NCBI GenBank assembly: GCA_045593745.1
Contig: JAZNXF010000012.1
Coordinates: forward strand, 21,575 to 85,574
Length of the DNA stretch: 64,000 bases
Origin: Elusimicrobiaceae bacterium
GTDB taxonomy: Bacteria; Elusimicrobiota; Elusimicrobia; Elusimicrobiales; Elusimicrobiaceae
Direction: 5' to 3'
Below the pieces are notes generated by a model. It did not search any database. It was not told the origin of the DNA and saw nothing but the letters and a program-made list of their open reading frames with translations. The position numbers were made by a program, and so were the translations under genes. The first letter of the stretch is position 1; each line of letters opens with the position of its first letter. This document shows positions 3,630 to 59,350 of this stretch, in pieces.

Positions 3630-3842
3630 TATAAGTCCCCCTTGGCTAAATTTTAGCATTTTATCAACGAATAAATAAACAACAACTTACCCTCCAAATT
3701 GGGCAAAAATGTGCAGGATTGCGCAAAAGTTTTAGTACAAAGTAGGAAGAAATTATGTAAAATAAAAAAGTAGCAAAAAAATTTATTCTGTTTTTGGAAT
3801 CCTATGAAGAATAGGAGAGGGTTTCGGGTTAAACCGAAAAAC

Positions 3843-4005
3843 GCTCTAGCCGCCAAAGACAACCAGTATAGACACAAAGCGAAAGGACTTCGAACCCTTT
3901 TGCTTTGTGTCGAATGTTTATCGTTTTGCTTTTGAACAAATGATAAATTACGGCTGTTGGTTGTTAGGTTCTGGCTAGAGCACTTGCACCTGACAGCCGT
4001 TTTTT
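3843..4005 (+). ncRNA. Candidate cis-regulatory structured leader RNA (attenuator/riboswitch-like), copy A
   Basis: GCTCTAGCC/GGCTAGAGC outer stem, GACACAAAGC/GCTTTGTGTC hairpin, GAATG (3912), second hairpin, TACGGCTGTT (3949), ACAGCCGT followed by a T-run (3993-4005). The same fold occurs before all four pilin genes. Confidence 0.8.
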
Positions 4006-4052
4006 ATGGGGTTTTGACAGATAAATTGAATTTAACGGTAAAGGAGTAATGT

Positions 4053-4724
4053 ATGCAACATAGAAATACCCGGCGGGGTTTTACGCAACAAGAAAAAGAG
4101 GCCGTTATCTGTTCCCCTTGTGGGGAAAGTGTCGCGCAAGCGACAAAAGAGGGGCAAAATAAGGAAAAATCCTTATGGCCCCTCCTACCCCGCCTAACGG
4201 CGGTACTCCCTCCACAAGGGCGGGAGATGTCCTGGGGTTTTACGCTTATTGAATTACTGGTAGTAGTGTTAATTATTGGTATTTTGGCGGCGGTGGCCCT
4301 GCCGCAGTACCAAAAGGCCGTGGAAAAAAGTAGGATTGCGGAGGTAAAAATAGCATTAGATACTTTGCAAAAAGCAGTAGATCTTTATTTGCTTGAAAAT
4401 GGTTATCCTTCATCGGGTATTGTCTATTTTGTAGGAGAATCCTCTGCAGAAGATGCTACAAATGTCTCGTTGGATTTGGATATTACCAAAAGTATGGTTT
4501 GTTATGCTCCAGAAGATCCTTTTTGTGTAACAGATCACTTTTCTTATGATGCTTACTGCGAACCTTGGGGGTGTATTGTGGGTGCGGGGGATATTGATGT
4601 AAAGAATGCTGAAGAGTATTTGCGTAGTGATTACGACCGATATCGTTTGAGGTCAACAAAAAGCGCAGATACGAATCAATGGGTTAGAGAATGTATAGAT
4701 TGCCCTTCTTATGTAGAATGGTAA
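4053..4724 (+). CDS. Type IV pilin (PilE-like) with extended leader
   Basis: G|[29 protein letters not shown]-methylation motif; AAGGAG RBS. Confidence 0.92.
4111..4227. repeat. Palindromic REP/MITE-like element inserted in frame in the pilin leader
   Basis: Multi-hairpin TTCCCC..GGGGAA / GAGGGGC..GCCCCTC / CTCCCT..AGGG architecture; flanked by the 12-bp direct repeat GGGGTTTTACGC (4075-4086, 4234-4245); related copy at 34475-34577. Confidence 0.75.
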
Positions 4725-19595: not shown

Positions 19596-19606
19596 TATAA
19601 TAAAAA

Positions 19607-19929
19607 TGGTAGCCAGATAACCGCTCCCGGCTAACTTCAGCGCAGGGGGAGGAACTTCCGGACTCCACAGGGCAGTATGCCACCTGAAAGGGTGGGCTGG
19701 CGTTTTTTCTTTTTTTCGCCAGACGGAAAGTGCCGCAGAAAATAAACCGCCCGCAAGGGTAAGGGTGAAAAGGTGCGGTAAGAGCGCACCGCGCGCAAGG
19801 TAACAAGCGTGGCAGGGTAAACCCCATACGGAGCAAGGCCAAGCCGGTCCACAGGTGCCCGCCTTCGTGACCAAGTAGGCCGCTTAGAGTAATGGTTATC
19901 CACGACAGAATCCGGGGTACCGGCTACCA
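19607..19929 (+). ncRNA. rnpB: RNase P RNA (type A)
   Basis: TGGTAGCC/GGCTACCA P1, GAGGAACTTCCGGACTCC, GGAAAGTGCCGCAGAAAA, GGTAAACCCC, GAGCAAG, ACAGAATCCGG. Confidence 0.93.
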
Positions 19930-19945
19930 CATTTTCTTCTTTTTC

Positions 19946-20260: not shown

Positions 20261-20410
20261 TGGCCCCATGTAAAATTAAATTATCCCCATTTTTTCTGAC
20301 TATTTATGGCGGGCTTTTTTTTCTTGTTAATTAGATAATTTTTTATTATACTATAGGTACAATTTGTTCTGTTTTTGGAACCGTTTAAGAAACGGAGTGC
20401 TTGAAAAAGT

Positions 20411-20564
20411 TCTTGTCTAGTCCAAAAATAGCCGACTTAGGTACAGCTGAAAACTATAGATTTGGCTGTGCCGAATGTTTTCCGTATCTGCCAGGCAGAT
20501 ATGGAAAACTACGGCTGTTATGGCTGGGACTCTAGACAAGACCTGTGCTGTATAGGCCGTTTTT
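20411..20564 (+). ncRNA. Candidate structured pilin-leader RNA, copy B
   Basis: TCTTGTCTAG/CTAGACAAGA outer stem, two hairpins separated by GAATG (20473), TACGGCTGTT (20510), GCCGTTTTT (20556). Confidence 0.8.
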
Positions 20565-20639
20565 GTTGGTTTCATAAGCAGAAGAATTGAACATATAGGT
20601 TGGGTGAAAACCCAACGTAAAAATAAGGAGAGTAAACTT

Positions 20640-21335
20640 ATGAACTACAAAAACACCCGGCGGGGAAAAACGCTTCATTTCAATACAGAAAAAAATATGG
20701 GATGTTACCGCTTCCCCCTAGAGGGGGAAGGTGGCCAAAGGCCGGATGAGGGGGAAAGTAATACAAAAGTTTTAGCCATTGGTCAACTAAGGATCCCCCT
20801 CACCTGCCCTACCGGGCATCCGCTCCCTCAAGGGAGAGAAAATGCACGCTCCGGGTTTACGCTTATTGAACTTTTGGTTGTTGTGCTTATTATCGGCATT
20901 TTGGCGGTGGTAGCGTTGCCGCAATACCAAAAAGCTGTCAAAAAGGCACGGGGCACAGAAGTATTAACGGCTCTAGATGCGTATGATAAAGCCATATCAT
21001 CCTATTATTTGACCCATGGTTTTTATGGCGGGGCCAGAGCCGATACATTAGATGTTCAGATGCCAATTTTGAAGCATTTTTTATATGCGTCTGTAGGCGG
21101 AGACAGAACGCCGGACTTTCAAGTAGGTAGCAATTTTCTCCAGGTAGGAACCGGAACATCTACACAGATATTGTTGGTAGAAAAAGGTACTACGTTAGGA
21201 GTATGGGCCGAGTGGGACAAAGGTTCACGGCCTCAGCGTTGGTGTTCGGACAATGGGAAAGATATTTCCAAAGAATGTGCTGCCTATTTTGGCCCCTGTA
21301 CATGGAACAGTATGTACAGGCGTTGCTACTTCTAA
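20640..21335 (+). CDS. Type IV pilin (PilE-like) with extended leader
   Basis: G|[24 protein letters not shown]; start at ATG 20640 after AAGGAG. Confidence 0.92.
   Translation: MNYKNTRRGKTLHFNTEKNMGCYRFPLEGEGGQRPDEGESNTKVLAIGQLRIPLTCPTGHPLPQGRENARSGFTLIELLVVVLIIGILAVVALPQYQKAVKKARGTEVLTALDAYDKAISSYYLTHGFYGGARADTLDVQMPILKHFLYASVGGDRTPDFQVGSNFLQVGTGTSTQILLVEKGTTLGVWAEWDKGSRPQRWCSDNGKDISKECAAYFGPCTWNSMYRRCYF
20711..20838. repeat. Palindromic element in frame in the pilin leader
   Basis: CTTCCCCCT-AG-AGGGGGAAG, TGAGGGGGA/TCCCCCTCA, CTCCCTCAAGGGAG; same architecture as 4111-4227. Confidence 0.7.
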
Positions 21336-34577: not shown

Positions 34578-34767
34578 AAAACAATACCAATGGGAAGCAG
34601 CCCATCTTTCAGACAGTATTACCAACAATTTTAAATATTAGTCCCAACATGTAGTTTATCTCTGGAAAAATATACTAAATTTGTTATAATTACAGTGTAA
34701 GTATAATACTTACGACAACTTAATCTGTTTTTGGCACTGTATAAAACCGGACGTATTGGCTACAATA

Positions 34768-34914
34768 CAGGCAATCAACCAAAACAGCCCATTAAAGCAT
34801 ACAGTTAAGGACCTCTAGAACCCTTGATTGTATGCTGAATGCTTGCCGCTTGCGGCGGGTTACGGCTGTTTATGTCGGGGTGTGATTGCCTGCCTGTCAT
34901 AAGGAGCCGTTTTT
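34768..34914 (+). ncRNA. Candidate structured pilin-leader RNA, copy D
   Basis: CAGGCAATCA/TGATTGCCTG outer stem, 15-bp hairpin, GAATG (34837), TACGGCTGTT (34861), AGCCGTTTTT (34905). Confidence 0.8.
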
Positions 34915-34940
34915 ATCAGGCCAAAACAAAGGAGACAATC

Positions 34941-35513
34941 ATGAAGAAACTGGCAATCAAACCTGCAAGCGGTTTTACCCTCATTGAACTGCTTGTTGTT
35001 GTACTTATCTTGGGGGTTTTGGCGGCGGTAGCACTGCCCCAATATACGAAAGTAGTAAAAAAATCCAGGGGGATTGAGGTGTTAGTGTCCTTAGATGCCT
35101 TGGACAAAGGGCTTACCGATTACTACTTGGAAAATGGTTCTTATATAGGTGTTACTCCGGCTTCATTGGATATCACTATTCCGGATATACATCATTTTAA
35201 GTATTTAGTAGGAACCGGCAGTAGGTATGAACAAGGTTTTTCCCAACCTTATGTGGATGCGTCAGCATCGGATAGTTATGTATATTTGCTATCACCAGAA
35301 AATATTTGGGTGATTGGTTCCTGGAAACAAGGCAAATTAAATTCTATATATTGTACGCCTTCGAGTCCAGGCGGTGTTCGCTTTTTTCAGCGAAACTCCT
35401 GCTCTGATTATTTTAATTGTGAGGCCACCCCATTGGTATATCACCCAGAAAGACAGACAGGATCCCTTCCTGACCCAGCTTATTATACCGGGGGAGCATG
35501 CTGGTTAAAATAA
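34941..35513 (+). CDS. Type IV pilin (PilE-like)
   Basis: MKKLAIKPASG|[24 protein letters not shown]; AAGGAG RBS. Confidence 0.92.
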   Translation: MKKLAIKPASGFTLIELLVVVLILGVLAAVALPQYTKVVKKSRGIEVLVSLDALDKGLTDYYLENGSYIGVTPASLDITIPDIHHFKYLVGTGSRYEQGFSQPYVDASASDSYVYLLSPENIWVIGSWKQGKLNSIYCTPSSPGGVRFFQRNSCSDYFNCEATPLVYHPERQTGSLPDPAYYTGGACWLK

Positions 35514-56470: not shown

Positions 56471-56543
56471 TGGACCGGACAGGACTTGAACCTGTGACCT
56501 TCCGCGTGTAAGGCGGACGCTCTACCAACTAAGCTACCGATCC
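56471..56543 (-). tRNA. tRNA-Val (anticodon TAC), CCA not encoded
   Basis: GGATCGG TAGCTTAGTTGGTAGAGC G TCCGC CTTACAC GCGGA AGGTC ACAGG TTCAAGT CCTGT CCGGTCC A. Confidence 0.96.
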
Positions 56544-58377: not shown

Positions 58378-58887
58378 TCAGTCCCAATTGCGTGGTAATA
58401 ATTGCTTAATTAGCTCGCACGTTAATTGCCCATGAGGAGCATATTCCTCGTCGTATTGACAGTGACATGTGGGTTGTCCATTGATTATGTCACATTCAAA
58501 ATAAGTATCCACCGGGTCTTCTGCTAATGCCACTTTCCAATACATTTCATTATTTTCAGATACGGCCCAAGCTACATAACGAAAATAATCATCGTCACAA
58601 TGAAATTGGCCTTCTGACATGCGGCATGATGTATGGGGAACAAGGTTTGGTAGGGGGTTATCTGTGGGGTTTGTTGAAGCCCATTTGTCTGTGTCTTGAG
58701 CGAGGATATCTAGCACCATTGCTTTTTCTACACTATTTATAAATGCCATGGGCCTAGCCGTTAACCGTGCTTTCCATACGGCCTTTTGATACTGTGGTAA
58801 CGCCACCGCCGCCAAGATACCGATAATTAACACCACTACCAACAACTCTATAAGCGTAAAACCCCGCCGGGTACTATTTATTGTCAT
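58378..58887 (-). CDS. Type IV pilin (PilE-like)
   Basis: MTINSTRRG|[24 protein letters not shown]; GGAGG RBS. Confidence 0.92.
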
Positions 58888-58922
58888 ATTTCCTCCTTCA
58901 TTCTGTTGGGGATATAGACAAT

Positions 58923-59070
58923 AAAAACGGCTATAATGTCGCCTGGGAGTATCAGCAACCAAACGCCAAACAGCCGTAGTTCCGCGCAAAACGGAACATT
59001 AAACAGAAAATATCTCCGGAGCAACCCTTCGGTATTTTCTGTCTTAACGACTGTTTTGGGGCTGATACTC
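58923..59070 (-). ncRNA. Candidate structured pilin-leader RNA, copy C
   Basis: On the minus strand: GAGTATCAGC/GCTGATACTC outer stem, hairpin, TAATG, hairpin, CTACGGCTGTTT, TAGCCGTTTTT. Confidence 0.8.
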
Positions 59071-59350
59071 GTTTTAATTGTCTAAAACTTGCCTGCTAAC
59101 GCAGGAACCCAAAACAGAATAAATTTTTTATTACCTTTTTATTCTACATAATTTCTGTTTCTTTTAATAGGTATTTGGGAAAAAACGTAAGTACAAAACA
59201 AAACTTGACAAAACTAACAAAATTTGCTAACTTAAATACACAAGGCAATCAAACAAGCCGCAACCCACCTTTCAAAAGCACATTTTTGCGGCATCCAAAA
59301 CAAAAAAATCCCGCCGGATAACCGGCAGGATACAAAATGAATGTAGTATC

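Follow-up and report, generated by a model that had tools for sequence, protein, structure and literature searches.

The class II cyclic di-GMP (c-di-GMP-II) riboswitch sits at the pilin gene pilA1 of Clostridioides difficile, and second-messenger riboswitches control surface genes of this kind. Attenuation that depends on a protein likewise has precedents, in PyrR, TRAP, the BglG family and lambda N with boxB. Here we characterize a structured leader RNA of ~200 nt that is present in four copies (A, B and C on the + strand, D on the - strand) within a 64-kb stretch of DNA from an Elusimicrobiaceae bacterium (GenBank assembly GCA_045593745.1, contig JAZNXF010000012.1, positions 21,575 to 85,574; hereafter the window). 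Elusimicrobiaceae are common, barely studied gut bacteria with very many pilin-like genes. The leader represents an undescribed family of RNAs, in which two mutually exclusive folds are both conserved, and we estimate a probability of roughly 0.8 that it acts in cis, as a 5' RNA that sets transcription read-through into the next gene.

Briefly, our model involves four segments, R1 to R4, that would compete for partners. R1 (CUGUUUUUGG) is complementary to R2 (CCAAAAACAG), R2 overlaps the strand that pairs with R3 (ACGGCUGUU), and R3 can also pair with R4, (A)GCCGU, ahead of a U-run. In the OFF fold, R1:R2 would form and leave R3 free for R4, producing a long hairpin that together with the U-run would serve as an intrinsic terminator. 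In the ON fold, R2:R3 (P1b) and a gene-specific outer stem (P1a) would close a three-way junction with hairpins P2 and P3, thereby using up R3 and the P1a 3' arm, so that the terminator would be blocked. The interval from R1 to the P1a 5' arm contains two more hairpins, P0a and P0b, which, like P2 and P3, are predicted in both folds. The leader is most likely an on/off switch; both folds are evident from sequence and covariation, and we infer that the choice between them is regulated.

Scanning the window with a covariance model (CM) of the leader recovered copies A–D with scores of 107–152 bits (E 3e-21 to 4.5e-31) and no fifth match. The four copies and their R1 segments are as follows.

3784..4006, + strand, leader copy A, whole, from R1 to the U-run (CM 151.6 bits, E 4.5e-31)
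20365..20566, + strand, leader copy B, whole (CM 138.4 bits)
34721..34916, + strand, leader copy C, whole (CM 131.1 bits)
58921..59121, - strand, leader copy D, whole (CM 107.2 bits)
3788-3797, 20369-20378, 34725-34734 and 59117-59109, R1 in copies A, B, C and D, respectively (TCTGTTTTKGG)

Direct reading of the sequence shows (G/T)AATG, TACGGCTGTT and GCCGTTTTT in all four copies, in the same order and with similar spacing, and TACGGCTGTT occurs four times in the window, solely inside leader copies. An initial annotation of this DNA, made from the letters alone, had reported the four copies; their places and strands are borne out, the shared motifs are exact in every copy, the P1a arm pairs that it quoted are correct on re-pairing, and P2 and P3 fold as the hairpins it claimed. 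Its remark that P1b is weakest in copy A also holds (R2 of copy A is CCAAAGACAACCA). The length it gave, ~150 nt, was too short for what is nonetheless a real element: an alignment of the four copies with their flanks revealed the conserved TCTGTTTTKGG of R1 ~57 nt 5' of the earlier start. Similarly, its layout of P1a, P1b, P2 and P3 stands but lacked the entire 5' domain of R1, P0a and P0b.

To sample the family, we scanned a species-representative genome collection with a sequence pattern, yielding at least 110 loci. About 90 among the matches listed were Elusimicrobiaceae or Elusimicrobium metagenome-assembled genomes (from ruminants, other mammals, birds and termites); the remaining listed matches, in other phyla, were without R1 and R2 and reflect chance. 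An alignment of 90 full-length copies less than 85% identical to one another, annotated with the ON structure, was then built into a CM of 206 positions. At E<=0.01 this model gave at least 118 hits in 100 sources, including four, and no more, from the window, and at E<1e-15 at least 112 copies in 91 sources and at least 42 Elusimicrobiaceae genomes, with zero hits in six non-Elusimicrobia control loci. Seventeen of the 112 copies do not contain the seed pattern and were found only by the CM; these still keep R1, R2, R3 and R4, with R3 nearly invariant.

The family matches no class that we could find, as the initial annotation had supposed. At gathering thresholds, Rfam 15 (4227 models, including c-di-GMP-I/II, T-box and PyrR) returned only RNase P RNA and one tRNA from the window, and at E<=10 copies A and B and the leader of locus L104 drew only chance microRNA, small nucleolar RNA and long non-coding RNA matches far below threshold. 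No account of an Elusimicrobia pilin leader was found in the available parts of the literature, including the 26-genome and 50-genome surveys from the Breaker laboratory.

The ON fold consists of P0a, P0b and the P1a/P1b stem closing a three-way junction with P2 and P3. On the CM alignment of 112 copies, 91.9% of cells in this fold are paired, compared with 65.8% after shuffling and 38–43% when the arms are slid; compensatory change is seen at 53 of 60 pairs, and the covariation score is 0.703 (0.228 shuffled, ~0.10 slid). Because a CM alignment leans toward its own structure, we recounted the fold on a structure-blind MAFFT alignment, which gave 81.8% paired (66.0% shuffled, 39–47% slid) and 967 compensatory cells (357 shuffled). 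In the outer stem P1a the four Watson-Crick pair types are about equally frequent, and seven of its nine pairs are each broken in no more than 3 of the 112 copies. In an alignment-free comparison, 87 of 91 P1a 5' arms could form an uninterrupted run of at least eight Watson-Crick pairs with the 3' region of the same copy, compared with 0.89% for non-cognate regions. The covariation that the initial annotation had claimed for the stems is therefore very strong by all three routes. An extra ON helix suggested by single folds, CCAAA (R2) with UUUGG just 3' of R3, found no support on the alignment (63.7% paired, 62.9% shuffled). The parts of copy A, all on the + strand, illustrate the arrangement.

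3788..3797, + strand, R1 of copy A, CTGTTTTTGG; R2 partner in the OFF fold and used in the minimum free energy (MFE) fold of copy A
3800..3816, + strand, hairpin P0a, capped by a GAAGA (GNRNA) pentaloop; 92.7% paired, compensatory change at 6/6 pairs
3820..3841, + strand, hairpin P0b; 90.7% paired, 7/7 pairs compensatory
3842..3852, + strand, P1a 5' arm, GCTCTAGCC
3853..3865, + strand, R2, CCAAAGACAACCA; partner of R1 (OFF) or R3 (ON, P1b)
3871..3911, + strand, hairpin P2 with the 9-nt loop ACUUCGAAC; palindrome TTCGAA at 3889-3894
3912..3915, + strand, junction J2/3, GAAT; part of the GAATG of the initial annotation
3916..3948, + strand, hairpin P3 with a GUUU/AAAC base; 95.4% paired, 10/11 pairs compensatory
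3950..3958, + strand, R3, ACGGCTGTT; partner of R2 (antiterminator P1b) or R4 (terminator)
3970..3982, + strand, P1a 3' arm, GGCTAGAGC; in the terminator-hairpin loop in the OFF fold
3950..4006, + strand, terminator hairpin (R3 and extension with extension and R4) and U-run GCCGTTTTTT; MFE fold

The OFF fold is conserved as well, as judged on an alignment that had been fitted to the ON fold. R1:R2 is 96.5% paired in the 112 copies, with sequence conserved in addition to pairing, and shows compensatory change at 7 pairs (13 cells), compared with 1.8 pairs (2.1 cells) after shuffling. The 18 pairs of the terminator are 85.4% paired (76.6% shuffled) and contain 186 compensatory cells (79 shuffled); for each of the two helices, none of 500 shuffles reached the observed value. 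Variation in R2 is almost solely A>G and C>U, changes that retain both the R1 and the R3 partner through G-U pairs. The terminator is an imperfect hairpin of ~18 bp with the P1a 3' arm in its loop, followed by GCCGUUUUU. In all copies, including the 17 outside the seed pattern, ACGGCUG/CAGCCGU is followed directly by U4-7, giving the G+C-rich stem and immediate U-run of an intrinsic terminator. The two mutually exclusive partners of the invariant ACGGCTG, one of them terminator-like, had been recognized in the initial annotation, and both pairings prove to be conserved on the alignment. The terminator stem it drew, ACGGCTG with (A)GCCGT before the U-run, forms part of the longer hairpin just described, and its two-state logic of mutually exclusive pairing has to be extended to four segments, with R1:R2 as a third competitor (an anti-antiterminator). 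The corresponding parts of the other three copies are as follows.

20369-20378, + strand, R1 of copy B
20422-20434, + strand, R2 of copy B
20440-20472, + strand, hairpin P2 of copy B; loop palindrome CTATAG at 20454-20459
20511-20519, + strand, R3 of copy B
20411-20421 and 20531-20541, + strand, P1a arms of copy B
20556-20566, + strand, R4 and U-run of copy B
34725-34734, + strand, R1 of copy C
34779-34790, + strand, R2 of copy C
34796-34836, + strand, hairpin P2 of copy C; loop palindrome TCTAGA at 34814-34819
34862-34870, + strand, R3 of copy C
34768-34778 and 34882-34892, + strand, P1a arms of copy C
34906-34916, + strand, R4 and U-run of copy C
59117-59109, - strand, R1 of copy D, CTGTTTTGG
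59060-59048, - strand, compensating R2 of copy D, CCCAAAACAG
59043-59002, - strand, hairpin P2 of copy D; GGGUUGCUCC-type loop, no clear palindrome
58977-58969, - strand, R3 of copy D
59071-59061 and 58956-58946, - strand, P1a arms of copy D
58931-58921, - strand, R4 and U-run of copy D

A six-frame scan of the window identified four open reading frames (ORFs) with a prepilin motif, and each lies 27–76 nt 3' of one leader copy on the same strand.

4053..4724, + strand, prepilin-like ORF A (Pfam N_methyl), its leader peptide interrupted by a long in-frame insert
20640..21335, + strand, prepilin-like ORF B
34941..35513, + strand, prepilin-like ORF C
58378..58887, - strand, prepilin-like ORF D

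The distance from U-run to start codon, 27–76 nt in the window and commonly ~20–55 nt elsewhere, is too short for a separate promoter, which argues that the gene depends on read-through. Upstream, -10-like boxes lie 17–60 nt 5' of R1; a promoter scan called a promoter-like site for copy B only.

20324..20352, + strand, promoter-like site of copy B, TTGTTA-17-TATACT; a consensus match only, implying a start probably ~9 nt 5' of R1

The pilin association extends to the family, as the initial annotation had anticipated: the Pfam N_methyl prepilin motif is found in 80 of 100 downstream ORFs. Its statement that a leader precedes every pilin gene is true of all four in the window and has to be relaxed to 82 of 97 pilin-motif ORFs in the fetched related loci. 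The proposed regulon, mostly pilins as stated, also takes in genes for glycosyltransferases and exopolysaccharide (EPS), the other downstream ORFs comprising three GT8 and three GT2 genes, EpsG, a pyruvyl transferase, a few unrelated genes and small proteins. The leaders at loci L022, L053 and L090, which have a short P2 or the loops GACG, UAAUUA or ACGCGU, precede small predicted proteins of ~70 amino acids without a Pfam match; these genes may form a separate target class.

The same pairing data bear on the possibility that the leader is unregulated, either a constitutive structured 5' untranslated region (a stabilizer or processing site) or an independent small RNA gene of ~200 nt with its own terminator. 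P0a, P0b, P2 and P3 are constant across the two folds, and Shine-Dalgarno (SD)-like sequences and extra 5' hairpins at some loci resemble 5' stabilizers, as this explanation would have it. However, both pairings of R2 and both pairings of R3 are conserved and covary, the changes in R2 suit both of its partners, and the short gap before the start codon leaves no space for a promoter of the gene's own, making an unregulated element improbable. We regard as very improbable that the conserved blocks, which are carried alike by scattered pilin paralogues, form a DNA-level element (a recombination site, mobile cassette or operator), since the stems covary with G-U pairs and are strand-specific, features of RNA and not of duplex DNA. 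The same low standing applies to a translated leader peptide over R1. Although the four-segment logic equals that of classical attenuators, the AUG of the conserved GAAUG has no SD and its frame varies among copies. An SD-preceded ORF reaching R1 exists in only 10 of 111 leaders, with unrelated peptides, and leader-peptide attenuation was rejected. In copy C, the AUG of GAAUG opens an ORF in frame with the pilin (34839-35513); as it has no SD and is not kept in the other copies, we attribute it to coincidence.

We then compared the energies of the two folds. The MFE structures of copies A and D contain R1:R2 and the long R3:R4 hairpin, whereas those of copies B and C contain P1a and the R2:R3 three-way junction. 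For the full-length RNA the difference is 3.9 +/- 6.2 kcal/mol in favor of OFF, the more stable fold in 80 of 112 copies; when the RNA is cut just after the P1a 3' arm, ON lies below the R1:R2 state by 10.1 +/- 5.3 kcal/mol, in 109 of 112. The two folds are thus close in energy and the preference flips over the last 25 nt, which fits an attenuator that is read co-transcriptionally. The mutually exclusive, near-isoenergetic pairings (R2:R3 against R1:R2 and R3:R4) constitute an expression platform of the kind found in riboswitches, and the four segments pair 1:2, 2:3 and 3:4 as in trp-type leaders.

Several points weigh against reading the leader as a switch that controls read-through. The truncated transcripts favor the ON fold without any ligand, so that a trigger might stabilize either fold. 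The terminator hairpin is atypical, with a loop of 13–14 nt and internal mismatches, and a simple promoter/terminator scan did not call it, a miss that we ascribe to the large loop. Since the copies are related by descent, as paralogues and orthologues, significance is overstated by the shuffle control, but not by the slid and non-cognate controls. Seeding with an exact pattern inflates the apparent invariance of AAUG, R3 and R4, although the 17 CM-only copies retain them. Finally, the public sequencing runs that contain words from the window are metagenome contigs at low share and one doubtful 'RNA' run, and are silent on transcript ends.

If the read-through switch responds to a signal, two surfaces are the best candidates for sensing it. 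The first is the core of the three-way junction, made up of P1b, J3/1 (UA), the base of P3 (GUUU/AAAC) and J2/3 (NARU): J2/3 reads N-A-R-U in 109 of 112 copies (the other three end in C), J3/1 reads UA in 102 of 112, and hardly any variation is seen in the P3 base or P1b, while the distal stems vary freely. A covarying, structured domain with a conserved core is what would be expected of a small-molecule riboswitch in which a ligand locks either the P1b/P2/P3 junction (ON) or the domain of R1:R2, P0a and P0b (OFF), with co-regulation of pilins and surface glycans as the consequence. This possibility, toward which we are tentatively inclined without giving it even odds, also draws on the dedicated expression platform and on the gene set, as pili together with EPS and glycosyltransferase genes resemble the targets of second-messenger riboswitches. 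It has to contend with a gene context that names no ligand, with the lack of likeness to known aptamers in Rfam 15, with an ON fold that is thermodynamically ligand-independent, and with the sequence conservation of R1:R2, a pattern more usual at protein or tertiary contacts.

The second candidate surface is the sequence-conserved R1:R2 helix with its adjoining GNRA-type loops. Of 112 P0a loops, 36 are GNRNA (GAAGA, GUAGA, GCAGA, GUGGA and the like) and 15 are GNRA, and in total GNRA or GNRNA loops cap P0a in 51 of 112 copies and P0b in 38 of 112, suggesting tertiary or protein contacts. Together with the conserved sequences of R1 and R2, these loops raise the rather doubtful prospect of a protein-dependent attenuator, in which a factor that binds the R1:R2 helix, R1 as a U-rich single strand, or the P0a and P0b loops of GNRA/GNRNA type would shift the balance. 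The GNRNA loop of P0a is of the lambda boxB pentaloop type, and a genome with dozens of leaders could make do with a single factor. No protein emerged as a candidate, a partner not having been searched for, and the GNRA-type loops are far from universal and could equally make RNA-RNA tertiary contacts.

The apical loop of P2 differs in kind from the other loops, through a self-complementarity that the initial annotation had passed over. It has a median length of 9 nt, and in 83 of 112 copies a 6-nt self-complementary word lies inside the predicted loop, compared with one copy for P3 and none for P0a or P0b. Palindromes of at least 6 nt occur in 89 of 112 P2 loops, where shuffled loops predict 8.1. 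At least 14 hexamers are represented, among them UAAUUA, UCAUGA, UUAUAA, UUCGAA, UUGCAA, UCUAGA, CUAUAG, CUCGAG and GUGCAC; in the window, copies A, B and C have UUCGAA, CUAUAG and UCUAGA, respectively, and copy D has none. Each genome contains several words, some of which repeat within it, and the word forms an island, with unpaired A or C between it and the G-C stem. A palindrome at the DNA level (an operator or template-switch correction) was rejected as the source, the word being islanded by asymmetric unpaired bases and several words occurring per genome; that diversity also argues against a single sequence-specific protein.

These features suggest that two leaders can kiss through their P2 loops, and one explanation for the whole system, which we hold to be unlikely, is RNA-RNA self-recognition: P2-loop dimers, possibly joined by P1a pairing in trans, would alter the outcome at the terminator or what becomes of the mRNA, and each gene would sense the level of its own leader RNA. 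In its favor are the restriction of the palindromes to P2, the preservation of symmetry across the different words while the sequence changes, the placement of an islanded word in a ~9-nt loop as in the HIV-1 dimerization initiation site (DIS), and the OFF fold, which leaves both P1a arms single-stranded. Against it, P2 is present in both folds, so kissing alone selects neither; ~20% of copies, copy D with its GGGUUGCUCC-class loop among them, have only a 4-nt palindrome or none and depart from the DIS-like central hexamer; and the repeated words in some genomes mean that the code is not strictly one per gene. Quite unlikely, in our judgment, is the fullest form of this idea, a metabolite-free leader that combines kissing P2 loops with P1a pairing in trans to nascent transcripts, for gene-by-gene feedback or an exclusive choice of pilin. 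Terminated molecules would expose their P1a arms, one in the terminator loop and the other in the multiloop of the 5' domain; these arms would pair with the nascent transcript of the same gene, and each pilin paralogue would thereby gauge the concentration of its own leader RNA.

Further features flank the leaders. Upstream of R1, an AGGAGG-like SD is found at L103, L076, L043, L024:176, L004, L079, L093 and L055, next to which comes a start-stop mini-ORF (ATG TAA or ATG TAG) or a GC hairpin, with (A)CAAUUU-N-AUCUGUUUUUGG after it. The arrangement may be a 5' stabilizer or a further layer of control. Downstream, 23 of 112 leaders have the conserved motif ...CAG(N)nAAUUGAA(A)UUAA (4021-4034 and 20580-20592 in the window) between the U-run and the pilin SD, ~20 nt from the former; it is found together with the 'TATAGGTACAATTT' type of promoter. 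The AAAUUG at the core of the motif complements the CAAUUU immediately 5' of R1, and in read-through transcripts the two might pair into a 5'-3' helix that closes the whole leader. A small conserved hairpin, GGUUGGGUG-NNNN-CCCAAC, lies between terminator and SD at 20598-20617 and in L015 and L027.

Some of the pilin genes themselves contain in-frame, GC-rich and strongly folding inserts in the prepilin leader peptide, between 'NTRRGFT' and 'GFTLIELL'. The insert of ORF A spans 4075-4233 (159 nt, -69.9 kcal/mol) and is bounded by the 12-nt direct repeat GGGGTTTTACGC; that of ORF B spans ~20664-20852 (189 nt). Similar inserts are present in L015, L019, L027, L109, L110 and others, with several unrelated types at the same site of homologous pilin genes and few related copies by blastn. 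A sheep-gut contig, from a run labeled RNA-Seq, joins 4074 to 4234 exactly without the ORF A insert, and could reflect either variation in the DNA or splicing of the RNA.

Words from the window occur in ruminant gut metagenome runs. An RNase P RNA of class A (211 bits) lies directly 5' of leader B, and its gene, rnpB, is 87–89% identical to rnpB of two Elusimicrobiaceae loci; the order rnpB-leader-pilin is common to the window and locus L037. Together these results place the window in a gut Elusimicrobiaceae bacterium.

19605-19935, + strand, RNase P RNA, class A
56471-56543, - strand, tRNA

In the read-through reading that we prefer, the leader would be one shared control element for the pilin repertoire and for part of the surface-glycan machinery, and it makes an unusually clean case of a switch in that covariation reveals both states. 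If a ligand exists, the family would add a new class to the riboswitches, one linked to behavior at the cell surface; if the palindromic loop does dimerize, it would be a rare bacterial attenuator with RNA-RNA self-recognition. The CM and the 112-sequence alignment are ready for annotating Elusimicrobiaceae genomes and for choosing constructs for biochemistry.

The leader is akin to the c-di-GMP-II riboswitch of pilA1 in its role and to trp-type attenuators in its logic, and is a member of neither. Like the C. difficile riboswitch (RF01786), it is a 5' leader with a terminator platform directly before a type IV pilin gene, and the riboswitch too controls surface and adhesion functions. However, the two have no match in sequence or structure (Rfam at E<=10; copies A, B and L104), and the leader is larger, with five hairpins, two junction domains, the extra R1:R2 anti-antiterminator and a self-complementary loop. 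The trp, his and leu leaders follow the same logic, with 1:2 and 3:4 (terminator) opposed to 2:3 (antiterminator), but the leader described here has no conserved peptide or SD over segment 1, places P0a and P0b between segments 1 and 2 and P2 and P3 between segments 2 and 3, and reinforces 2:3 with P1a. PyrR and T-box attenuators share the three-layer design, where formation of the antiterminator depends on a third pairing, although their Rfam models gave no match to the leader. P0a recalls the boxB hairpin of lambda N in its 5–6 bp stem, its GNRNA pentaloop and its position near the 5' end of a terminator-controlled transcript, and in copy A the loop, GAAGA, is what we take to be the loop sequence of lambda nutR boxB. 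Unlike boxB, the loop is GNRA or something else in many copies, and the terminator lies within the same RNA fold and not at a distance; neither a boxA nor an N-like protein, for which no search was made, was identified. The large self-assembling RNAs ROOL, GOLLD and OLE likewise have multiple hairpins and GNRA-type loops, and intermolecular loop contacts are suspected in the leader; it is much smaller than these RNAs, is tied to a terminator and one downstream gene, and occurs many times per genome. The P2 loop, finally, resembles the HIV-1 DIS, a ~9-nt loop on a G-C-closed stem with a central 6-nt palindrome and unpaired A/C flanks (two 5', one 3'), and variants keep the symmetry in both; the leader differs from the DIS in being a bacterial cis-regulatory RNA and not part of a viral genome, and in that about a fifth of its copies (~20%) do without the 6-nt word.

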